Shown here: piece after piece, positions 20,453-64,000 of the stretch
How the letters are laid out: each line of letters begins with the position of its first letter
Position numbering within the stretch: position 1 is the stretch's first letter
Source: Paraphysomonas bandaiensis
Taxonomy: Eukaryota; Protista; Chrysophyceae
NCBI GenBank assembly: GCA_965644295.1
Contig: CBFFRP010000141.1
Span: forward strand, 285,973-349,972
DNA length: 64,000 nt
Direction of reading: 5' to 3'
Notes under the pieces: model-generated
What the model was told of the DNA's origin: nothing
Seen by the model: only the letters and a program-made list of their open reading frames with translations
Database searches by the model: none
Position numbers and translations under genes: made by a program

Positions 20453-21590
20453 TTAATCTCGTTTACACGAATTATAACAAACAACTACTACTAAACCGAG
20501 AGAATAACCCCACTGCTTAGGCCAGATCAGGTCTCGTATGTATTGCCAGATGCAATACTGCTCCAATAATTCGCCTATACTGAAGTGATTCGACCCACTG
20601 CGTCTGCTCCTCCGTGAGCTCACGTTCCTCTGCCAATAGATCCTTGTTCTTACACTACCCTTTCCCATAACTGAGCTGAATTTCTTAATAATATTCTTTG
20701 CATACTCGGATTGGTCCAACATATACCTGCTGTCGCCTCTGGTTATCCTGATATTCAGAAACCGCTGACACTCACCCAGATCATGCATTTCAAGGTTTTC
20801 ACTGAACCTACGCTTAACACTTTCCAAGTAGTTAAGGTTAAGGTCAGCAGATGCAAGTATAATATCATCCACATATTATATATTTACAATAAATGCAGCT
20901 TTCCATTACTCCATCTCATATACAAACATGTGTTCAAGATACATGCAGTGAAATGCATTTATCGATGTGTTTGTTCCACTGCCTTGGTAAAGACCTCAAT
21001 CAATATACATATATTATATATATTACAATATTTGCCAAAATATCTCGCTTCACTGGGTGCACATTTTGGAAAGGTTATATTCGGCGGAAGCAGTTGCAGC
21101 GTAAGTGCAAAGGCATCTGTATTGATTTTTTTCAGTTGATAAAGGCACTATAAGGATTGAGGTCTTTACCAAGGCAGTGGAACAAACACATTGATAAATT
21201 TATCAAATCGTTGCATTTCACTGCATGTATCTTGGACACATGTATATTATGTATACATAATAGATTCAGTGAGAGTGAGTTCGATTTACATGTGTTCAGT
21301 AATTCAGACTGGGCTGGTGATAGGATGCCTCGGCGGTCCACAACGGGATACATTTTATTTTTATGTGCAAGGTGATACTGGTGTGGCTTGAGGGGGTGTC
21401 CAAGGATCCCGGACTCCTAGTAGCGAAGTTGACACCATTCTTTATGAACAGCAAGAGTGCAAGGATCTCTCCGAGAGTCCTGTCCATCAATAGAGGTAGA
21501 AGTACATTAACATCAAGTATCACTGGGTGAGAGAGCTAGTTAATGGAAAATTTCCTACATCATAGTTGATTCATGTGTCCTCGCTGAAGC
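20453..21590. mobile_element. Ty1/Copia LTR-retrotransposon RT-RNase H relics, two fragments head-to-head
   Basis: Minus strand: (Y)VDDIILASA...MHDLGECQRFLNIRITR...LDQSEY. Plus strand: KAL*GLRSLPRQWNKHID, FSNSDWAGDRMPRRSTTGY, and PVH...KYINIKYHWVRE. Frameshifts and stops present. Confidence 0.88.
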
Positions 21591-22905: not shown

Positions 22906-23023
22906 ATGAATAGAATAAAAGATGAGAGAAAAGTATTCACGGCATGTTAATGTGTCTATCTATCAGTGTTGAGGGTTGTATCTATGTGTTATTATATGCA
23001 TATCATACCATTGCATTCATATA

Positions 23024-24449
23024 CAGTCAGTTCTCGATATCGTCAATGAGGTATGGTAAAAATGTCCGTTATGGGAAAAGAAATAGGCTTGGTACAGGGT
23101 TTTTAAGATAAAACCCCCGATTTTATATAAAACTACAGTTTTTTAATAAAAATCCCTTATTTTGCGTGATTTTTGTAAAAGTGATTATAGAAGTTAGCAA
23201 TATATTGGATACTGTATATGTGCAGAGAGTATGCAACAGAGAGAGTATCATGAACACATTCATAATATATACTCACATTGTTGTACGTAACGATGTCAGT
23301 TGAATGCAGCATCGGTACCAAGCGCAAGAAATCTTTGAGTACTTTCTCGGATGTGCAGAAATGTAACTTCGTGAAAGAATATAAAGAGGGTCATTTCAAA
23401 ACCCTCAACCAATTCGTTGCATACAAGAAGAACATATTCAGCTGTTCAGCATTATGCAAATGGATTAAAGCCAGTGATAATGGGACATTGAAGATTGAAA
23501 CTTGCACAGGCCGCAAGAAGCAACGGAAGGGTTTATTTCCTGAGGTGGAGAAGAAAATTGTTGACTACATTAAATTTCAACCTAATGTCAACTCTGTGTA
23601 TCAAAGTTAGGGAGCTTTCCGCTGTGCCTGATATAGTTTCAGGAATTACTGAGATGAGTTCGTTTACTGCCGAACAGCGAGCAAGCGCAGTGGAATTATG
23701 GTGTAATGTGGAAAATGATCCATTGGTTGTCGAAACTGAAATTGAGGAAGCCATGGAGCGATTCGAATCTTTTTCTATTTCTCCGCAAATACCGATGGTG
23801 GATGATCATTGTCAAACTGATACAAATATTGACCCTGCAACTTCATCTAAGGTAACTTTGAATCAATTCAATGATGCCATGCGTGTTGTATATGACTTTA
23901 CTATGGGAAGTAGTGATGAGGATGCTGATGCTTTGCACTACACGTTTGTTAAGGCCGCTTCTGAAGTTACTAAACGTTACTTAGAGAAGCGCAAAAGGTC
24001 TTCGTCACAACGAACAATACAGCACTTTTTCTCGGTGCAGAGATCTAATTCTACACTATAGCAGCGTTATGTAGTAACTATGTTATACAGCTGTCCTGTG
24101 TCGTTAAGACAACGTATTTTTATCATGTAATAACAAGGCTTTCCACATAATTAATCTGTAGTGCCGTAATAGAAAGTTTTTCAGCCTTAAACACAGTATC
24201 CTGCTAAATTCAATTGTGATATATAGAATTTTTACCATAGACTTAGGGTTTTTTAGTATAAAACCGTGGTTTTAATATCCAAAAACTGAGTTTTATGCAA
24301 AATATCTGAATTTTTAAACAAAAACTGGCTTTTTATAAATAAACCTGTTTTTTTAAAATAAAACCCGGGGTTTTTTTATGGGAAAAATATCCGTTATTGG
24401 AAATTGTAACCCTATGGTACAATCCATTGACGATATCGAGAACTGACTG
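23024..24449 (+). mobile_element. pogo/Tigger-like Tc1-mariner DNA transposon, internally deleted (non-autonomous), 1426 bp
   Basis: Perfect 25-bp TIRs CAGTCAGTTCTCGATATCGTCAATG (23024-23048 and 24425-24449), each flanked by TA. The internal ORF has an HTH/CENP-B-like start (RKKQRKGLFPEVEKKIVDYI) joined to a C-terminal SQRTIQHFF tail. No DDD catalytic domain. Confidence 0.92.
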
Positions 24450-24991
24450 TACTATCATCCCGTATATACAGTATACATATGTACACAGCAGTACACGCGT
24501 ATTGGCATCCTTTGTGTATTTTTGTTCCAAGAAGCCTCTAATATTGAGGCAACAATTATCTGTATTATAGACGTAGTTATATAGCATTAATATAGAGGAG
24601 TTTTGATTCAATTTATTTCCGAAAAATGTGATGCTGACTGCCCATACGCGGTATAGCATATAGACATATAGACATATATATGTACAATGTACAGCAGTAG
24701 TACACCATATAGGGCAGTACTACTATGTATTCTCCTATACGTAGTGTGTGTATGTATATAGATGGAGATGTGAGCTATTATATGATTGGTTCTCGCGGAA
24801 GGGTGTGTGTCCCACAGGCGTCCTGCTGTATACATGACACCAACACAACTATCTATATGTACATGTACATACATGCATTACAATCTCTGAACTACAAAGT
24901 AATCAGAACATTCTCATATAGACAATTACTATTCTCACCTAAACTCTTCTACTCCCTCATTCTGTCCATTAGATAGCCTCTAACAGAGAAT

Positions 24992-28234: not shown

Positions 28235-28324
28235 CCTGCCTTAGCTCAGTTGGTAGAGCATTGGACTGTAGAGGTTGTAACTTAGGATATCCAATGGTCG
28301 CTGGTTCGAATCCGGCAGGCAGGA
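28235..28324 (+). tRNA. tRNA-Tyr: tRNA-Tyr(GTA) with 17-nt intron (28272-28288)
   Basis: Acceptor CCTGCCT/AGGCAGG plus A. D arm GCTC-AGTTGGTA-GAGC. Anticodon arm TTGGA-CTGTAG^A-TCCAA. T arm GCTGG-TTCGAAT-CCGGC. T7 Pol III terminator at 28350-28356. Confidence 0.97.
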
Positions 28325-33203: not shown

Positions 33204-33699
33204 ACCACTGTATATGTACTTACACACCACTCTATATGTACTTACACACCACTCTATATGTACTTATACACCACTCTATATGTACTTACACACCACTCTA
33301 TATGTACTTACACACCACTCTATATGTACTTACACACCACTCTATATGTACTTATACACCACTCTATATGTACTTACACACCACTCTATATGTACTTATA
33401 CACCACTCTATATGTACTTATACACCACTCTATATGTACTTATACACCACTCTATATGTACTTACACACCACTCTATATGTACTTACACACCACTCTATA
33501 TGTACATACACACCACTCTATATGTACATACACACCACTCTATATGTACTTACACACCACTCTATATGTACATACACACCACTCTATATGTACTTACACA
33601 CCACTCTATATGTACATACACACCACTCTATATGTACTTACACACCACTCTATATGTACATACACACCACTCTATATGTACATACACACCACTCTATAT
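33204..33699. repeat. 22-bp minisatellite (TATATGTACTTACACACCACTC), ~22 copies
   Basis: Direct tandem repeat with no unique spacers. Variants CTTACAC, CTTATAC and CATACAC. Confidence 0.95.
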
Positions 33700-33849
33700 G
33701 GAGATATTTAAATATGGCCCCATACATATAGAAGACACACAGCTCCAGGATATGCTCATCTAACTAGAGATCACCCATATATAAGCAAGATGATCACATA
33801 CCTCCAATATCAATAAACATATTCATCATATTACCAAGTATCATAATCA

Positions 33850-39317: not shown

Positions 39318-39497
39318 AGTATGATATGATACTAATAGTAAGATACTGTACAGGTATACCTATGAGGATATATACATACACATACACTTCTGATTACATG
39401 CACTTCACTTCCTTTAAGAATATCAGCCAGAACAATCCTCCGCTCCACATACATACAGCAGTATATGCATACATACATACAGCAGTATATACATATA

Positions 39498-39922
39498 TAC
39501 ATACATACATACATACATACATACATACATACATACATACATACATACATACATACATACATACATACATACATACATACATACATACATACATACATAC
39601 ATACATACATACATACATACATACATACATACATACATACATACATACATACATACATACATACATACATACATACATACATACATACATACATACATAC
39701 ATACATACATACATACATACATACATACATACATACATACATACATACATACATACATACATACATACATACATACATACATACATACATACCTACATAC
39801 ATACATACATACATACATACCTACATACATACATACATACATACATACATACATACATACATACATACATACATACATACATACATACATACATACATAC
39901 ATACATACATACATACATACAT
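39498..39922. repeat. (TACA)n microsatellite, ~106 units
   Basis: Near-perfect tetranucleotide run with two single-base interruptions. Confidence 0.97.
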
Positions 39923-54845: not shown

Positions 54846-55269
54846 AGTTACTATTCAGATCGTTTTGAGGGTAGAGTACATAGGTGATCAGGTGGAGGTG
54901 TGTAGTTGAATAGTACTGACAATGGAACACAGAGTCTGTAGAGACACATAGACACATGCATATATATGTACATGCATGTACAGAGCGTATGTGGTATATT
55001 CCATACACTACTGCCGCATCCAGCACTTTCTTTTATGTTCTGTTTTATATACAGTGAAATACAGTAGCATATGAAATACCACACTCTACGATTGTAGCAG
55101 ATATCTCTATACGATATACGTATATAGTATATAGTATATAGTATATGTACAGCAGCCAGTATATATAATGCTGTATATACATATATATCCACAGTGTACT
55201 TACTATAGCAATAGAAGAGAGATAATCAAAGCACTCCATTCCAGTCCATATATTATCATCTACATAATC

Positions 55270-57783
55270 ATGCTTAAATATTTATTTTATATATCATGGT
55301 GGATCTCTTTTGTTAATTCTCTTTCCCCAGTAACTCTTGAAACAAACTCTTCTAGTATTACAATACAAAATGGTTTTACTTATCTAGTGTATGATATATC
55401 TATACAGAGTATCACAACTTTATCAGCTGATTTTAATGGAAATGGAAAATATGGTCATAATATTTTATCATTACCATTTAAAATGGAAGTTGTATCAGCT
55501 GATGATGATGTACTATCTAATAACCGACGAGCTCCTATTCAGTTTACATATGATGTAGTGAGTAGGTCGAGTGACCGAGTTGAGGTTCTTTTATCTGGGA
55601 TATCCAATTCAGATGATAACCCTATTGCTGAGGAGTCATGGCGCTTAAGTTTGGAGCGTGGTCATAGATTTGTAGAGATTCAAATTTCTGGCTCGGCGCT
55701 TCGTCATGCGGAGGTACTGTCAATTCGACATGGTGTTTATACTGGCGCATCGTCCCTCTACGGTCTTTACGACCGTGGGTTAGTGCAAATGATGAACAAT
55801 ACGGATATGTGTTTTGGTTCGAGCGAGAGTATTTCTCGTGCCTATATGCTTGGAAACGATATGTCTCTTGACGTCCTTATCTCTTACCCTAACGAGACTC
55901 AAGGTACCAAGGCGTTCGATACCGTATTCCGTTCTTCCACATCACAGTTTTCCAGTGCTTTCGAACATGTGGTAATTGGATCCTATCCACACAAGAGTTT
56001 GTATATGGAGGAAGCTTGGGGTAAACTCTGTTGGGAAGGGGCTCTTCCTGTAACCTTGAAAATGGGTGAGTCCTGGTCGTTTACCTTGCGCCTGGGGCCA
56101 AATAACATGGACTTCCCGGTGTTTCCCGTCCCAACATATGCATCGCAGGCACAAATCCCGTTGACTGACCTGCGCACTTTCCTTACAGGCGCATATGCCT
56201 CGGGTCCAGGCTGCTTGCAAAGTTACTATGATATGAGGCAGGGCACAATTGCTCCTACAGTAGCACACCCGGACATTGGCTACTTCCCGGATACGAACTT
56301 CTTCGATCCGGATAATTTCATTTCTCTCTCAGCTATGTTATTCTCCGGTGATGCGTATATGCATAAGCAAGTAAAAGAGGTTTTGGAGCGTACGGCCAAT
56401 ACTATGTGTGGGATAGGATCCGACCAGGTGGAGGCTTACTGCAAAGGACGAAGCACCCGTACCCGACCCAGGAAAATGGTTTCGGCTCATCCATCTGCAG
56501 CTTCCCTTGATCAGCGGGCCGGGCAATTGATGCATCATTTTATAGACCTTGTTCCAACTTACGAGTCCATTGCAGGGTCAGAACAACTCGGACCGAATAT
56601 CTTTTGGTCGCTGTGCACGTTGCGATATGCTGCAGTAACTGGAGACATGGATTGGTTGGCGAGTATGGAGCCGTACATCGCACTCTCCTCCCACTTTCTC
56701 CTTTCCTTTTTTGACGAAGATATGGGCCTACTTCTCGTTCCGGGTCCGCTCTGGATCGATGTCTTAGTGCGAGAGAACTATACTTCTGACAGCAACGCTA
56801 TCGCCCCATTCGTCCTAGACAAACTCGCTGACGCCTTCTCTGCCTTGGATACTCACTGCTCTTCTTCATTACGGTGCGAGTCCAATCCTGAGCGGGGTAG
56901 ATGGGTGTCGGAATTGAGACGTGTAGCGAGTATTATTAAAGGGAGCATGAATTTATACTTGTGGGAGGACTCCCAAGACGATCACTACGTTACACAGTTG
57001 AATCTTGACCGGACAACTACCAGAGACTTTATTGATTATGACGCTAACCTATTAGCAGTAGCATTTGGCGTTACACCATCCTCACGAGTGGAGAGTGTAC
57101 TACAGCGCGTAGACAGCGGACCATATACCCATGTTCGGGGGACGTGGTGTAGCGAGGTGGCATATTCGGGAGATGCCGACGACTGCTACATTGTCGGAGG
57201 AGATGTGTGCGGGGACTCCGTAGTCACTCTGGCACGCATAGGTAGGACACTTGATATATCTTTGTGTAGCGCTAACGGTGTAGTAGGCTGGGCGGATGCA
57301 CATGCTCGCAAGCGTGTAGGAGATCTGGACACCTTTAACACGCTGCTTCTGGAGCCTTTACAGGAAGACCTCATCACCTACACGTGGCTTTACGAGCGGT
57401 ATGACAGTGCAGGAGAGCAGACTCGTACCCCGTTTTACTTTGAATACCCTTCACTGGTTACAATGATGCTATTCGAGGTCAGATATGGTATATACATCGA
57501 TGTGGATGCCGTTAGAGTAAATCCCTTCCCGGCACAAGATTTTACGTTTGCCTTTGGCAGTAATTATGTGCAGTACAGCCAAAATTACGTGGAACTTAGG
57601 TTTTCAGGGAGTGGAGTATTGAAAGTGTTTTATATTCATTCCCTTCAGCCTAATTCGCTGTATTCCGTCAACAATGACGGATGTATGGACAGAACTCAAA
57701 ATGTGAGAACGGACGCTGATGGAACACTACAGTTTGAAATGCATCTTTATTCGGATTGCTCTATTAAGATCAACGCGGAATAA
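55270..57783 (+). CDS. Secreted six-hairpin (alpha/alpha)6 glycosidase-like protein
   Basis: Signal peptide MLKYLFYISWWISFVNS, N-terminal beta-sandwich, YAAVTGDMDWL, LWIDV, MNLYLW...DHYVTQ, DFIDYDANLLAVAFG, WLYERYD and FEYP. Probable in-frame 45-nt intron at ~57242-57286. Confidence 0.72.
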   Translation: MLKYLFYISWWISFVNSLSPVTLETNSSSITIQNGFTYLVYDISIQSITTLSADFNGNGKYGHNILSLPFKMEVVSADDDVLSNNRRAPIQFTYDVVSRSSDRVEVLLSGISNSDDNPIAEESWRLSLERGHRFVEIQISGSALRHAEVLSIRHGVYTGASSLYGLYDRGLVQMMNNTDMCFGSSESISRAYMLGNDMSLDVLISYPNETQGTKAFDTVFRSSTSQFSSAFEHVVIGSYPHKSLYMEEAWGKLCWEGALPVTLKMGESWSFTLRLGPNNMDFPVFPVPTYASQAQIPLTDLRTFLTGAYASGPGCLQSYYDMRQGTIAPTVAHPDIGYFPDTNFFDPDNFISLSAMLFSGDAYMHKQVKEVLERTANTMCGIGSDQVEAYCKGRSTRTRPRKMVSAHPSAASLDQRAGQLMHHFIDLVPTYESIAGSEQLGPNIFWSLCTLRYAAVTGDMDWLASMEPYIALSSHFLLSFFDEDMGLLLVPGPLWIDVLVRENYTSDSNAIAPFVLDKLADAFSALDTHCSSSLRCESNPERGRWVSELRRVASIIKGSMNLYLWEDSQDDHYVTQLNLDRTTTRDFIDYDANLLAVAFGVTPSSRVESVLQRVDSGPYTHVRGTWCSEVAYSGDADDCYIVGGDVCGDSVVTLARIGRTLDISLCSANGVVGWADAHARKRVGDLDTFNTLLLEPLQEDLITYTWLYERYDSAGEQTRTPFYFEYPSLVTMMLFEVRYGIYIDVDAVRVNPFPAQDFTFAFGSNYVQYSQNYVELRFSGSGVLKVFYIHSLQPNSLYSVNNDGCMDRTQNVRTDADGTLQFEMHLYSDCSIKINAE

Positions 57784-58798
57784 GTTTCTAAGTTAAGGTA
57801 TAGAGTCTACGATGCACCGCATTTATACTCTATGTTTTGAAGCCTACATATCTATGTGCATTCACTGTAATAATAATCTCCTACATCTGTGAACCTCTCG
57901 TTATTAAACATATCTTGAAAGATCAAACTATTCATCATCAGCATTTGTACATCACTATATTTCACTGTACATTCAAGTGACATACTGAATATACTCGTAT
58001 AAGATCATATTCTAATAAGTAAGAAGGACCTTTATTAGGATTCAGCTTAAGACAAGATAGTATCTGTGAGTTATAATGTTCAATGAAATATATCATGAAC
58101 TGAATTAGAGAGAGTATCTGTTGAAGATACATGATCATCATCATAACGTCGTCATTATCAGTTACACTTCTAACCATTCCGTTGAGCATGATAGCTATGT
58201 TTTATATTGTTATCTATAACTCTCACTTTACAGACTCTGGTATCTCATACTTGTTAAGATGTTATCTATACTCGGTTAAGTAGTAGTTTACTATGGCACA
58301 AACTACTTGTTATCAGGGATAGGGAACAATATATTCTTGTATTGTAATATATTGTAAAATATATTGATTGGTGGACTGGTCAAATATTCCATCAATATCT
58401 AAAGTTGAAATATCTAAGTAGAGGTGCACGAGTCATGTAGTATGTAGTTGACAGTTGTGGCCGGATGCAAGCATATTTCAATCAATATTGAATGAATATG
58501 GTGATGATGATGTCATCGATGATGGCTCAGAGTACTAAAAATGGAAACTACGGATGTGTTTACTTACTGGGAAAAATTTAATTTTGGCCCTTTTTGGCCC
58601 TCGGCCCGCTAGGGCCCTCGGCCCGCATTTGGCCCTCTACTACAACTAACAATAATAACAATAATTCTTAATTAAAAACACACACAACACACACTACAAC
58701 CACAAGCAACAATAACGCACAAAGCAAAGGGCAGTATTACGCACAAAGCAAAGGGTCAAATTTAGCAAGAGTTATTAATATCTTAAGCAAGAGCAACT

Positions 58799-59436
58799 TT
58801 ATACCAAAACATTTTTCGGAGCTGGGTCTACTTCCTTCTGAGCTTCCTCCAGCTCATTAACTAAAACTTCTTCATTAATAGACATTCTGGACTCCAGATT
58901 ATCTACCCTACTGGCAGTTGCTACACACAACTTAGTGACGTTCTCCAAATTGAGAGCAATTCCCCGTAACATTTCCTTAACTTCATCTAACTCAGATGAA
59001 CCAACAGGACCCTCCGAATCAGACATTTCGATATATATCTATAATCTACAATAATGATATCTTCACTTACGTGTTTTACCGTTAGTAAATTTACTATGAA
59101 CAACTCAGGTCTTGCAACCTAAGATCACTGAAAAGATATGAAATGGTTGTTTATCGAAACAACAAAACAGAAAGCTATAATAATAACTCTTTAAGAAACC
59201 AACAGCCAGAAACACAAGCTCCCCTGTATCCTGCAATCTAAAGCTCCCAATAGACAGATCAGTCAACCAACTATGTTAATTTCATAGAGAATTATTATTA
59301 AAAACTAAGTTACAAGCAAAACGAAAGACAGACCCCTAGTCTAAAGACTCCTCCTCATACACAGGACATTGAATGCAACCACAACCGTACAATATGCTCA
59401 AACATGTACTACACTACATACGATTCATATCCTACA
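58799..59436 (-). mobile_element. Probable 5' fragment of an LTR retrotransposon: LTR-like ~59120-59436, PBS-like site, short gag-like coiled-coil ORF (58799-59026)
   Basis: On the minus strand the segment begins TGTAGG, runs ~316 bp to ...GATCTTA, then GGTTGCAAGACCTGAG (GGTT start, like half-tRNA-primed Copia PBSs), then a 75-aa coiled-coil ORF. No second LTR or pol. Confidence 0.4.
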
Positions 59437-60374
59437 TCGTTTATAGTCAAAAACCCCCTGAAATACGCCTAAATAGGTCTTTTCCAAAAACCTCCGATTT
59501 TTGAGTCCCAAAAAACCCAAAAATCCCCAATTTTTGAGAATTGCAGAAAATCGCCGATTTTCGAGCCACAAACACCCAAAAATGACAATCTTCGAATCCA
59601 CAAAAATTGCAAGCACATTTCATGACAACTGCAATCACATTTCAACCCGTTAAACATCGCCATTCCTGCGAACCAGTGTACAACAGACCTAGCCATCTAT
59701 ACATAGGGAAATTTTACCATCAGCATGCCTAGAACACCTATGCATCTGTGCCCAATGGCACCCTACGAATTCCTCCCCATTCCACAGAAAATCGATGGTG
59801 TGTGATAATGGGAAAATAATCGTATATCATAGTCCGGAACGATGAGCAAGCACATAGAGCTGTTCAAAACCATCAGAAAGCTTCTCATAATGATGAATGG
59901 ACTACGAATATCGCACATGCGGTACCAATCAATGTTTCCTAACTCAAATCGCTGTTACACCGACTGCTATATGGATATAGGTGTAAACCAACGGGTGGCA
60001 ATCACGTAGGCCCACGAAATTGTGTGTATCACTGCTTCCTAACCCCAATCGCTGCCGTATGCCTCCTCCTAATCACGCTGGTATTACTCATCCCCGTCGA
60101 AAAGCTCGTAGGAAATACAGAAGTCGTGTCCATGATGGTTAGTAAGTCTTGTTTCGTTCCCTTTAGATCACTCTAATAATTCAATCTATCAACTACTTAT
60201 AAAACTTGTTCATTCCTTCTCCATATACTATAACCGCCTATTATACCAATATATATCATCATATAAAACTACCAAGGGCGTTATAAAAGCCCACGGCTTT
60301 ACACATATCTATTTGCTTAATTTTATATAAAGTCATTTAAAAAAATAAAAATATATAGTATTATTATAACATAC

Positions 60375-60587
60375 ATGAACAAGTCAGAAAAGAATATTGC
60401 TTATCAGAAGCAATACTACAAGAAGAATAAAGACAAACTAATAGCTTATAATTGTAAAAAGGTTAAATGTGAACTATGTGACAGAGAGGTTTGTAAAAAC
60501 AGAATTAAACTACATTATAAAACTGCTTTATGTAAACGAACACAAGAAGAGAAAAAGATGTTAGAAGAAAGGAAAGAAATAAATTAA
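60375..60587 (+). CDS. Small basic zinc-finger protein (viral type)
   Basis: YQKQYYKKNKDKL...KVKCELCDREV...LHYKTALC (CxxC...H...C). Preceded by the shared promoter-like motif. Confidence 0.7.
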   Translation: MNKSEKNIAYQKQYYKKNKDKLIAYNCKKVKCELCDREVCKNRIKLHYKTALCKRTQEEKKMLEERKEIN

Positions 60588-60738
60588 TAATTATTATAAA
60601 ATGGTTTAAAAACTTATAAATATATATATAAAACCCCCAATTTTTCAAAATAATTTATTCTATTCAAAATAATTTATTCTATTCAAAATAATTTTAGAAA
60701 TAAAACCCCCAATTTTGTTTTTAAAACCCTCAGTTTTA

Positions 60739-60996
60739 TTATATTATTCTTACATGAATTTCATCGATCACATCTTCAAAATGCATGACAAATTCTTCAA
60801 AGTCTTTAATATTTATTGTATAATCATGCCAAAACAAATTAGGGTTAGAACTACGAGCGTTAAATTTAGAATGGTCTATTTCTTTAAAGAATTGTACACT
60901 ACGAGCGGTAAATTTAGAATGGTCTAATGATTCAAAGAGTTCTAAACAAAGTGGGCCACTTTTTTTTTTATACTTAATAATTACATCGATTAACAT
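60739..60996 (-). CDS. Small hypothetical viral protein with internal duplication
   Basis: ATG at 60996. DHSKFTARS and DHSKFNARS come from a 29-bp direct repeat spaced 48 bp, which preserves frame. Confidence 0.45.
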   Translation of the reverse strand: MLIDVIIKYKKKSGPLCLELFESLDHSKFTARSVQFFKEIDHSKFNARSSNPNLFWHDYTINIKDFEEFVMHFEDVIDEIHVRII

Positions 60997-61102
60997 TGTA
61001 TATATAATTAGAAAAGAAAACAAATTTATACAAAAACCCTATAAAACCTTGAAGTCTAATTTAATTATAGAATATAATAATGTTGTTATATTATATATAT
61101 AG

Positions 61103-62548
61103 ATGTCAATTTATACAAAGCCGAAAACAAGCAATAACGCTATTTTCAATGCAGAAAATCATAAACAGATTGAAACAGCAAGAGTGATATTAAATATGGC
61201 GGAATATGCAAGATTAGACAATGCTAAATTTACAGCGAACGTTGAAATCTTGAATGGTAATAACTCAACCATAAACAATGAACCCCAAACAGTGGCCTTT
61301 ACAGATTCAAAAAATAATATGTTGTCAGATATGAATACAAGATTATTAAACCTCACTGAAAATGAAATACAAACATTAGACGGTATAAATACCAATGAAA
61401 CTATACAATCACAATTGAACACATTGACAGCAAGTTTTAATGGCCTTGATGCTCTCCAAGATATAGACTTAATTAATATACCGAATTTGCAAACGGATGT
61501 GGCAAATTTACAAGCCCAAGATATAACATTACAGAACAATATAAATGCTAAACATGATATAATAGATGTGAATAATAAACTTGATTCATCATTAATATAT
61601 GACTCAACAGAATTAGATACAATTGATAATATAATAGTAAGTTTACAAGATCAAATAACTAATAATGACACTGATATAACAAACTTACAAACTCAAGATG
61701 TTACACTTCAAAATAATATAAATGCTAAACATGATATAATCGATGTAAATAACAAGTTGGATTCTTCATTAGTGTATGATTCAACAGAATTAAATACAAT
61801 GGATAATATTATTTCTAGTTTGAATGCTCAAATAGCAAGTAATGATACAGATATAACAAGCTTACAAACTCAGATTACTAATAACGATACAGACATAACA
61901 AACTTGCAAACTCAGATTACTAACAACGATACAGACATAACAAACTTACAAACTCAAGATACAACATTACAGAACAATATAAATGGTAAACATGATTTAA
62001 TCGATGTGAATAATAAGTTGGATTCATCATTAGTTTATGACTCCACATTTACTGATACAATTGATAACTTACTAAGTACAATAGACGGCAATATTACAAC
62101 ACTTGAAAATACAAAATTGAATTTAACAGGCGGAACAATGACAGGAAATATAACAACTAAACAAATAAGCGAATCCATCAGCACAACATATACGTTTTCT
62201 TCAAATGTGTTGACATATAATTATAGCAATGGTTCAATTATATATTTCAATGGTTTAACAAGTGATACAAATTTTGAACTTGATATAACGAATATTAATT
62301 CAAGTAACTTAATAAATACTTCTTTCACAGTTTCTGTTATAATAGACACATCAACATATAAGGCATATATAAACACTTTAAAAGTTAATACAGTTTCAGA
62401 AACTTTGAATGTGTCAGGAGGACTCGCAAATATTAATGTAGACGATGTGACAACATCAGGAGCAATATTGCAAACAATAACAATAATATATACTAACTCA
62501 GGAACATCACCAACGAAAGTAATATCAAATATAGGTTCATATTATTAA
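61103..62548 (+). CDS. Trimeric coiled-coil fibre/adhesin-like protein (putative virion fibre)
   Basis: N-terminal MSIYTKPK...IFNAEN. Three modules of LQ.QD.TLQNNIN.KHD.IDVNNKLDSSL.YDST. 14-aa QITNNDTDITNLQT heptad repeats. KLNLTGGTMTGNI hinge and a beta-rich C-terminal head. Intact 481 aa. Confidence 0.75.
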   Translation: MSIYTKPKTSNNAIFNAENHKQIETARVILNMAEYARLDNAKFTANVEILNGNNSTINNEPQTVAFTDSKNNMLSDMNTRLLNLTENEIQTLDGINTNETIQSQLNTLTASFNGLDALQDIDLINIPNLQTDVANLQAQDITLQNNINAKHDIIDVNNKLDSSLIYDSTELDTIDNIIVSLQDQITNNDTDITNLQTQDVTLQNNINAKHDIIDVNNKLDSSLVYDSTELNTMDNIISSLNAQIASNDTDITSLQTQITNNDTDITNLQTQITNNDTDITNLQTQDTTLQNNINGKHDLIDVNNKLDSSLVYDSTFTDTIDNLLSTIDGNITTLENTKLNLTGGTMTGNITTKQISESISTTYTFSSNVLTYNYSNGSIIYFNGLTSDTNFELDITNINSSNLINTSFTVSVIIDTSTYKAYINTLKVNTVSETLNVSGGLANINVDDVTTSGAILQTITIIYTNSGTSPTKVISNIGSYY

Positions 62549-62720
62549 AAATATTTATTCTATTCAAAATATTTTTTCAAAATAATTTATCAAAAATATT
62601 TATTCTATTCAAAATATTTTTTCAAAATAATTTATCAAAAATATTTATTCTATTCAAAATATTTTTTCAAAATAATTTATCAAAAATATTTATTCTATTC
62701 AAAATAATTTTTCAAAAATA
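62547..62720. repeat. 45-bp tandem repeat, ~3.8 copies, sharing subunits with the array at 60641-60695
   Basis: Unit AAAAATATTTATTCTATTCAAAATATTTTTTCAAAATAATTTATC. Confidence 0.92.
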
Positions 62721-62742
62721 TATAAAACAATTTAAAAAAATA
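62721..62742 (+). promoter_or_regulatory. Putative viral promoter motif TATAAAACAATTTAAAAAAATA (also ~63387-63408 and a variant at ~60326-60347)
   Basis: Recurs ~22-28 bp upstream of three plus-strand ATGs (60375, 62765, 63434), followed by a TA-rich spacer. Confidence 0.6.
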
Positions 62743-62764
62743 TTATATATATATATTATATATC

Positions 62765-62932
62765 ATGCCTAGAGAAATTAAAAGAAAGTGCAAACATTGT
62801 GGTAAAACTATGAAAAGAATAAACAATGATTGGAATTCAAGAGAATATCATAAGAAATGTTATAAAGAGATTGAAGAGATGAAGTCAATGATTATGAATA
62901 TGGAGAAATATAAGAAAGTGTATAATTTATAA
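62765..62932 (+). CDS. 55-aa Cys/His zinc-finger micro-protein (absent from ORF track)
   Basis: MPREIKRKCKHCGKTMKRINNDWNSREYHKKCYKEIEEMKSMIMNMEKYKKVYNL*. CxxC...HxxC. Preceded by the shared motif. Confidence 0.72.
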   Translation: MPREIKRKCKHCGKTMKRINNDWNSREYHKKCYKEIEEMKSMIMNMEKYKKVYNL

Positions 62933-62995
62933 ATTATGTTGTCATTATAGTTAGTTAGTATTATATATACATATGTATATGTAACGTTTTAAAAA

Positions 62996-63319
62996 TTAAT
63001 AGCCTTGTTCAGGTTTAATATAAGAACCGTGTGAATCATCATATTCTTTTAATAGCTTTTGTCTTTTCTCATAAGCTTTAGTTTTTTCAAGTTGTTCACT
63101 TGGTAAGTTTCTATTGATTGGATTCTTATAATATATTTGTTGTCTTTCACTGAGAAGTTCAACTTGTTTTTTTCGTTTCTGTATTTCCAAGTCTTTGATT
63201 AAGGCTTTATACTCTTCAATTTTTTTCGTAATGTTTGATATTTCAGTTTGAACTTGAGGTTTCTTTGTCTTTGGTATTGCGAAGAGTTCATTTTTTAAAC
63301 ATATAACAAAATCTGCCAT
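62996..63319 (-). CDS. Lys-rich coiled-coil hypothetical protein (viral segment)
   Basis: Intact 107-aa ORF divergent from the 63434 ORF, with a heptad segment ISNITKKIEEYKALIKDLEIQK. Confidence 0.55.
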   Translation of the reverse strand: MADFVICLKNELFAIPKTKKPQVQTEISNITKKIEEYKALIKDLEIQKRKKQVELLSERQQIYYKNPINRNLPSEQLEKTKAYEKRQKLLKEYDDSHGSYIKPEQGY

Positions 63320-63433
63320 AAAGTATATATAATAATGTTTATATAAAAAATATAGTTTTCAAATTTAATAAAAATAATAATTTTATTATAAAACAATTTA
63401 AAAAAATAATTTTATATGTATAATATATATATT

Positions 63434-63829
63434 ATGAAAACTTTAACAATTGACATTGAAGAAATTGACAGTTTATATTCAAAGCTACAAAATGATAAAG
63501 AAATAAGATGTATTGTATTTGAATGTGAGAGAATGAGAGAACTAAATTTAATTGATTTTGAAATTGGTTTATCATATGAAGAAGAAGAGGAAAAAGATAT
63601 ATTACATGAAAAAAACAATAGAAAAATCAATAAAGTTATTCCAAGATTTATTCCCAACACTATAACACATCTAAGTTTTAATGATGAAATCCACCTTGAT
63701 GAACGTGCATATAATTATTTTCCTCAAAGTATACTTAAAATTAAGGATGAATACAAACACATAATAACAAGAGATGACATTAAAGAGATATTAAAACAAT
63801 TCTTACATTTAAGGTATGAAGTACTTTAG
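63434..63829 (+). CDS. Hypothetical viral protein with FNIP-like motif
   Basis: Likely ATG at 63434, after the shared motif. FIPNTITHLSFN resembles the FNIP/IP22 unit IPNSVTHLTF, and FPQSILKI is a weaker second unit. Confidence 0.6.
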   Translation: MKTLTIDIEEIDSLYSKLQNDKEIRCIVFECERMRELNLIDFEIGLSYEEEEEKDILHEKNNRKINKVIPRFIPNTITHLSFNDEIHLDERAYNYFPQSILKIKDEYKHIITRDDIKEILKQFLHLRYEVL

Positions 63830-64000
63830 AGGAGAAAAGGTATATTAATGTTAAGGATAACTGATGTAAACATGTCAATGTGTGATGACAATGAATGGAT
63901 ATGCATGCATGTGACATACTATCCATTCATTCATAATACGTAGTGCGTATGTGACAGGAAAACTACGGAAGCGAAGTTTACACTTCAACTCTTACAAATG

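Follow-up and report, generated by a model that had tools for sequence, protein, structure and literature searches.

An AT-rich, virus-derived island beside transposon remnants in the genome of Paraphysomonas bandaiensis, putatively a polinton-like virus fragment

A stretch of 64,000 nt of the chrysophyte Paraphysomonas bandaiensis (assembly GCA_965644295.1, contig CBFFRP010000141.1, positions 285,973–349,972 of the forward strand; hereafter the window, numbered from its first letter) contains, close to its right end, an AT-rich island with a fibre gene, small open reading frames (ORFs) and a recurring upstream motif. We consider it probable that this island is a deletion-truncated, non-autonomous piece of an integrated polinton-like virus (PLV), belonging to a multi-copy, recently active family and lying in a nest of transposable elements.

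Extent, genes and fibre of the AT-rich island

The GC content was 0.407 over nt 1–58500 and 0.393 over nt 58570–60290, fell to 0.242 over nt 60291–63830 and was 0.353 over nt 63831–64000, with the best change-point at nt 60306; in 3.5-kb windows of host DNA the minimum was 0.366 (mean 0.407, standard deviation (SD) 0.021). An order-3 Markov comparison between host and viral DNA, with the viral model trained on the fetched related loci alone, gave scores above 0 for every 200-nt window from 60201 to 63601 and below 0 for the windows of 58401–60001; the 20 island windows ranged from -0.3 to +30, the host mean being -13.8 (SD 8.3, n = 329), and the last 170 nt of the window scored -14.5, i.e., at the host mean. 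These profiles place the viral-type DNA at nt 60304 to ≈63830 and not at nt 59437–63848, as proposed in a first-pass annotation made from the sequence alone. That annotation had correctly recognized a virus-like island and its AT-richness from ≈60.3 kb, while the portion at nt 59437–60303 has a host-like composition, belongs to a high-copy repeat and is likely a long terminal repeat (LTR). On the right, judging from 170 nt, the viral DNA probably stops at ≈63830, before the window does; this right flank did not match any other part of the window above shuffled sequences.

Six ORFs starting with ATG cover 80% of the island, none of them requiring an intron (Table 1). The packed, intron-free arrangement reported at first pass was thus recovered, except that the 85-aa ORF is doubtful, being partly made of a 48-nt duplication and overlapped by a 57-aa opposite frame. 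Exact sequences of Zn70, Zn55 and the 107-aa ORF were present in the protein collection, with 22–25 near-identical database variants each. Zn70 and Zn55 had been described as zinc-finger micro-proteins: their Cys and His residues are indeed conserved, being invariant in 15/15 aligned Zn70 members and kept in Zn55 wherever the alignment covers them, while all the zinc-finger Pfam matches of the small island proteins were sub-threshold. The same applies to the FNIP-like ORF, in which a single repeat was matched, with 16.8 bits against a Pfam cut-off of 21 (E 0.0077); its translation would start from the second ATG, given the spacing from the upstream motif.

This motif, TATAAA-N4-TTTAAAAA, occurs in four copies, all in the island and none elsewhere in the 64 kb, in accordance with the recurring upstream motif already noticed at first pass. 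It was present in four of the seven intergenic segments, whereas in 1000/1000 shuffles no word of such a shape was shared by more than three segments. It was not found before the fibre gene. On sequence grounds, the motif is likely a virus-type promoter of non-structural genes.

The 481-aa protein is, according to its repeats, family and predicted fold, a fibre in which a repeat shaft ends in a phage tail-fibre-like head, thus bearing out the fibre-like assignment of the first pass. It consists of a short N-terminal motif, a shaft of 59-aa and 14-aa repeats, and a predicted C-terminal β-sandwich head of ≈140 aa; the three 59-aa repeats differ from each other mostly at third codon positions. 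An exhaustive search among 1.84 billion representatives retrieved 250 relatives at E ≤ 0.001. The head was present in 85 of the 239 stored proteins, C-terminally in 82 of them, so that at least 85 sequences make up this unnamed fibre-head family; no Pfam family covers the head. The head was modelled as a β-sandwich with a predicted local distance difference test (pLDDT) score of 89.9, and a structure search returned 84 viral models at E ≤ 0.001, the named ones being tail fibres. The best solved match was a phage capsid spike, with a middling Z score of 6.5 (root-mean-square deviation 3.2, 93 aligned residues), and the ESM Atlas lead agreed (0.92–0.93, virus clusters, one of them named as a tail-fibre C-terminal domain). 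In the tail fibre model of Synechococcus phage S-H38 and in the spike of Pseudomonas phage Pa223 (9ny6) a β-sandwich head likewise ends a repeat shaft, as predicted here, but these heads share only 6–25% identity with that of the island fibre. No tblastn match to the fibre was found in 50,697 phage records, and matches from PHROGs, NCBIfam and Pfam, all below cut-offs, were rejected as coiled-coil noise. Phage-like fibres have been described in PLVs (PMC12220804), and the island protein would act as the virion attachment spike, with the N-terminus anchored at the penton and a receptor-binding head.

Copy number and the transposon nest on the left

Part of nt 56000–64000 was contained in 20 of the 24 public runs listed, and the read contigs of four runs (X1, X3, X9 and X12), from four studies, were compared over nt 56000–60590 only. 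The shares of X1 and X3 (0.81 and 0.70) exceed the compared 57% of the stretch, so that words right of nt 60590 are present too. The last host gene (nt 55168–57783) showed single-copy depth and was nearly identical in all four runs, with single long contigs and 0 mismatches in X1 and X3. From ≈57870 rightwards, up to nt 60590, contigs were far deeper and fragmented. In the bins of Zn70 the depths were 19,429/4,357 vs 88 for the host gene, 12,615/2,941 vs ≈22, 156/176 vs 0–3, and 64/90 vs 0–5 in the four runs, i.e., 15 to several hundred times the host-gene depth; since depths summed over contigs do not translate into copy numbers, we say only that the Zn70 family likely has tens of copies in the genome. 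Among 40 of the 91 variant rows, the Zn70 variants were silent in 7/7 cases, vs 17–34% expected, which points to selection on Zn70 during the spread of the family and not to long decay. In the public runs recorded as RNA, the share matched corresponds to the size of the host gene. TARA names in the protein clusters suggest a marine label for the protist.

The island is separated from the host genes by repeats. One of the very high-copy repeats next to the last host gene is interrupted at nt 58569, where a depth jump and loose contig ends were observed in all four runs. The interrupting segment (nt 58570–58826) may resemble a Mutator-type end, and a hairpin found in it was no better than in shuffles. 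The gag-like ORF beyond it is truncated: its first 67 aa are identical to a 489-aa gag-like protein, the cluster of which has 21 members, and are followed by 8 unrelated residues across the joint at ≈58826/58827. This tail was found in 0/15 stored family members, and contigs of other copies, coming from either side, diverge from the window at 58826/58827. Atlas results for this ORF (Retrotrans_gag, Ty3_capsid and zf-CCCH at 0.80–0.85) were below 0.9 and are taken as leads only; P0176 had no Pfam match. Upstream of gag, nt 59097–60303 (≈1.2 kb) showed very high depth, with contigs stopping at nt 60295 (X1), 60299 (X12) and 60303 (X9) on one side, and at nt 59097 (X12) and 59121 (X9) on the other. 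This segment is likely an LTR, as deduced from a single TG..CA-bounded copy; no second LTR or pol lies in the window. We interpret the whole as a 5' LTR with the start of gag, which a deletion would have fused to the terminal piece of another repeat. Between the LTR end and the first viral motif there are 22 nt, devoid of any terminal repeat, and thus the retrotransposon likely inserted inside the virus.

The succession of events can be tentatively proposed as follows. A PLV copy would have become integrated in a region of host repeats; an LTR retrotransposon would then have landed in it (60303/60304), immediately before the Zn70 promoter, and a deletion would have run leftward from within gag (58826/58827) to another repeat, taking the remaining retrotransposon and the viral DNA beyond, where capsid, ATPase, polymerase/helicase and integrase genes would be expected. 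What remains would be the accessory and fibre block. This copy would form no particles alone; it retains promoter-like motifs, and expression or complementation in trans would be the most that it could achieve.

At first pass the island had been proposed to be one arm of a larger, possibly reactivatable virus. Neither proposal was supported for this copy: the left side is cut by the retrotransposon remnant and the deletion joint, and host-like composition returns before the window ends. Intact copies may exist elsewhere in the genome. Terminal inverted repeats (TIRs) and target-site duplications (TSDs), which the first-pass annotation suggested looking for, gave no pair in nt 57800–64000, where the window stops 170 nt past the island. 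A 10-mer common to nt 58545 and 63960 was rejected as a terminal repeat, being too short, and Rfam gave no match in nt 57800–64000.

An unlikely alternative is that of a larger, mostly intact element continuing to the right, in which nt 63831–64000 would be a nested insertion or a GC-richer viral region, followed by the hallmark genes. Five of the six ORFs look intact and have conserved upstream motifs, the right flank is visible over 170 nt only, and nested insertions in PLVs have been described (PMC8547959; 10.64898/2026.07.28.741278). On the contrary, the Markov composition of the right flank equals the host mean, and with the left side already cut by retrotransposon and deletion one terminus would be missing in any case.

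The same read data bear on whether the assembly is correct at this locus. An assembly mosaic, in which real repeats and viral genes of different loci, or of a free virus of the culture, had been joined via the repeats, would agree with the multi-copy nature of everything compared from nt 57870 rightwards, with joints unbridged among the contigs listed, and with assembly artefacts documented at such elements (PMC10120064, PMC8547959). Nevertheless, contig ends meet the TG..CA terminus at nt 60303, and gag breaks off sharply at a joint that is absent from all 15 stored family members, as real insertion and deletion joints would give, and the viral gene, with many variants, co-occurs with the single-copy host gene in the runs of all four studies; we thus hold a mosaic to be highly improbable.

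Viral class and weight of the evidence

The fibre is also the gene that links the island to a PLV-like genome. A homologue was found in a 24,184-nt IMG/VR contig (L001/L006; BLASTP E 9e-25, head profile 56 bits), whose 2106-aa protein has the shaft and the head in common with the island fibre, this being the one informative context. The contig codes, above Pfam cut-offs, for a Pox_A32 ATPase (E 6e-19) and a D5_N primase-helicase (E 3e-15), and shows a weak, below cut-off match to Peptidase_C5, an adenain-type protease (E 0.0069); no Pfam match to virophage or nucleocytoplasmic large DNA virus (NCLDV) capsids was found in it. Its ORFs of 499, 300 and 282 aa are, by position, candidates for capsid, penton and tyrosine recombinase. 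An 85-aa protein of the same contig is weakly similar to Zn70 (pairwise E 2e-4), and the island motif was not found upstream of its genes, apart from one stray match. As a separate observation, L006:1–21497 appears as a near-complete 24-kb PLV-like contig whose fibre has two immunoglobulin-like domains after the head.

A cysteine protease is a core marker of the Gossevirus group (10.64898/2026.06.19.733378 and PMC7805220). Protease, ATPase and element size of L006 fit this group (GKS1), in which its membership is putative; the contig was not found in the supplement of PMC7805220, and a literature search retrieved no paper joining Gossevirus and FNIP, although the family may still be published.

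The longest contigs of close fibre relatives were 23,786 and 22,779 nt in length, i.e., PLV-sized, and one relative is located on a 287-kb contig of uncertain nature. Scanning viral contigs with the fibre gave one locus from 39 candidates, while no locus was obtained with alignment A1 (0/44), the FNIP-like ORF (0/24), head alignment A5 (0/200), the 107-aa ORF (0/117) or P0034 (0/11), and the capsid candidate of L001 retrieved itself alone. The one viral contig match of Zn70 (1/33), a 13-residue chance likeness in a tailed phage, was rejected. Fibre scans were positive in 3/14 metagenome and 1/8 prokaryote genome candidates, all on contigs below 3.5 kb. One of these (L007:1–2704) is a fibre-gene contig in a metagenome-assembled genome (MAG) of Bacteroidota, with content nearly identical to L003/L005; its presence in a bacterial MAG is probably due to misbinned viral DNA.

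No double jelly-roll major capsid, penton or A32-type ATPase gene, no pPolB, primase-helicase, rve or tyrosine recombinase (YR) integrase gene, and no virophage or NCLDV capsid or core gene was found among the island ORFs, in agreement with the remark of the first-pass annotation that the hallmark genes are not in the window. Their lack makes a complete PLV less likely and leaves a PLV-derived fragment unaffected. A viral origin of PLV or virophage type, as assigned at first pass, is supported by the fold and family of the fibre, the one PLV-like context, multi-copy variants under apparent purifying selection and the lack of phage matches.

Several points weigh against a truncated PLV of a multi-copy family, beside the limit already given for depth as a measure of copy number. 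The right boundary is supported by a flank of just 170 nt, and no contig among those listed bridges 58826/58827 or 60303/60304. The hallmark-bearing context was found in one of five independent fibre-homologue loci, the other four being 1.5–3.5 kb long, with only further long low-complexity genes; in L006 itself the capsid, penton and recombinase candidates have no family match, and the fold of the capsid candidate reached a pLDDT of only 29.7. The six small ORFs gave no tblastn match at E ≤ 0.5 in the fetched loci, and Zn70 protein variants with amino acid changes do exist. Moreover, fibres are exchanged among PLVs, virophages, giant viruses and phages, and thus classify a virus poorly.

FNIP repeats occur in virophages and giant viruses, and the window has no capsid gene. 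An endogenous fragment of a virophage (Maveriviricetes) or of a giant virus, and not of a PLV, could also be consistent with the fibre relative on the 287-kb contig and with the virophage capsids that chrysophyte genomes also have (PMC10120064). We regard this origin as very unlikely, the informative context being a 24-kb element with an A32 ATPase and a weak protease match, devoid of Pfam virophage or NCLDV capsids; gene sizes and packing suit a small virus.

In five rows of their clusters, Zn55 and the 107-aa ORF lie on contigs of equal length, which suggests that they are linked in other copies too, and silent variants predominate. Both would be expected also of an amplified capsid-less mini-element, made of fibre, zinc fingers and FNIP-like gene, spread by helper PLVs or retained by the host, in which the fibre would serve as a host-range module or receptor decoy; fragments of Halocafeteria may in a similar way depend on complete copies (10.64898/2026.07.28.741278). 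On the contrary, no TIR or TSD surrounds the block, and short contigs are equally expected of full-length multi-copy viruses, so that among the readings considered here we give the mini-element the lowest probability.

Returning to the truncated PLV, a further-reaching extension is that it is more than debris and marks an undescribed, recently active PLV family of tens of copies in a widespread marine protist, whose shared promoter motif of non-structural genes would be read by a helper giant virus, with truncated copies induced on infection supplying fibre variants or decoys as an antiviral or host-range reservoir. We consider this quite unlikely.

Comparison with known systems and other features of the window

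Stramenopile genomes are rich in endogenous PLVs, accompanied by GC drops and Ty3/Gypsy neighbours (PMC10120064). Those of the Gossevirus group are, like the island, AT-rich, intron-free, dense blocks in a protist genome with a phage-like fibre, and the nearest context of the island likewise has ATPase, primase-helicase and a cysteine-protease candidate. Chrysophyte PLVs are present in many copies per genome, with 33–104 capsid genes in the data given by PMC10120064, and the island family is also multi-copy. In contrast, stramenopile PLVs measure 15–30 kb, while the island is 3.5 kb long, the window has neither a capsid, ATPase, polymerase or integrase gene nor a TIR, and the assignment of the island to a group is putative.

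In Halocafeteria seosinensis, partial PLV and virophage genomes adjoin retroelements and Mutator-like elements (MULEs) (10.64898/2026.07.28.741278); the neighbour of the island is instead probably an LTR element, with a gag of putative CCCH type, and both host and virus family differ. A retrotransposon at or in an AT-rich endogenous virus is likewise known from the endogenous mavirus-like elements (EMALEs) of Cafeteria burkhardae, with Ngaro, and from a Hydrurus PLV, with Ty3/Gypsy (PMC8547959 and PMC10120064). EMALEs are, however, virophages, mostly complete and TIR-flanked, and no Ngaro-type split direct repeats were found at the island. Since PLV fragments decaying in transposon nests are already described in stramenopiles, the locus serves as a useful example and is hardly surprising in itself. 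It points to an uncharacterized, recently active virus family of many copies, for which no close relative was found in IMG/VR or in the phage records. DNA of the protist is present in several public runs, and Zn70, the fibre head and the upstream motif offer handles for complete copies and perhaps for a helper virus.

Table 1. Features at the right end of the window (nt positions of the window).
Feature	Position	Strand	Basis or remark
Last host gene, ≈870 aa, single-copy depth reference	55168–57783	+	No Pfam or PDB sequence match
Very high-copy non-coding host repeats, permuted modules	57870–58569	.	Many joints and loose ends in read contigs
Terminal piece of a second repeat of lower copy number, with short, GC-rich subterminal repeats	58570–58826	.	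X9 and X12 contigs diverge after 58826
Truncated gag-like ORF	58799–59026	-	67 aa identity to 489-aa protein
Likely 5' LTR of gag-bearing retrotransposon	59097–60303	-	TG start at 60303, CA end at 59097
AT-rich virus-derived island (putative PLV-like fragment)	60304–63830	.	GC, Markov, related contig context
Motif copy 1	60326–60343	+	49 nt before Zn70 ATG
Zn70, 70-aa basic protein, CxxC..H..C, predicted zinc finger, multi-copy	60375–60587	+	22-member cluster
Motif copy 2	60595–60612	+	No ATG at usual distance; possibly lost gene
19-nt tandem array, unit family shared with the 45-nt array behind the fibre gene	60639–60694	.	
85-aa ORF, doubtful	60739–60996	-	No family; no exact match in protein collection
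481-aa fibre/spike protein	61103–62548	+	Repeats, family search, predicted fold
45-nt tandem array, 3.9 copies	62542–62717	.	98% matches
Motif copy 3	62721–62738	+	44 nt before Zn55 ATG
Zn55, 55-aa protein, CxxC..HxxC, predicted zinc finger	62765–62932	+	25-member cluster
107-aa lysine-rich ORFan	62996–63319	-	22-member cluster; 93–99% identity among 15 aligned
Motif copy 4	63387–63404	+	47 nt before second ATG of FNIP-like ORF
FNIP-like ORF, 131 aa (137 aa from first ATG, 63416)	63434–63829	+	One weak FNIP-like repeat
Host-like stretch, likely right flank; could be GC-richer terminal repeat or other insertion	63831–64000		Composition

The genes on the left of the island are ordinary eukaryotic ones, including XPA, RING, kinase, JmjC-type cupin, lipase and others, with Pfam matches in 12 of the 13 host frames tested. 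Further elements were observed among them. At nt 23022–24451, perfect 27-nt inverted repeats with TA at the ends enclose a broken frame with no Pfam match, likely a non-autonomous transposon of the Tc1/mariner/pogo type, whose subterminal AT-rich repeats are weakly similar to nt 60692–60743 of the island (E 0.33). A fragment of Copia-type reverse transcriptase (RVT_2, E 1e-9) at nt 20453–21243 adjoins a 318-nt fold-back resembling a miniature inverted-repeat transposable element (MITE), with arms 94–97% complementary. The host gene cluster also contains tandem arrays at nt 33204–33700 (22-nt unit, 22.6 copies) and nt 39447–39922 (ACAT, 119 copies), and the presence of such long arrays suggests a long-read assembly. 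Finally, a single tRNA-Leu was predicted by ARAGORN at nt 28235–28324.

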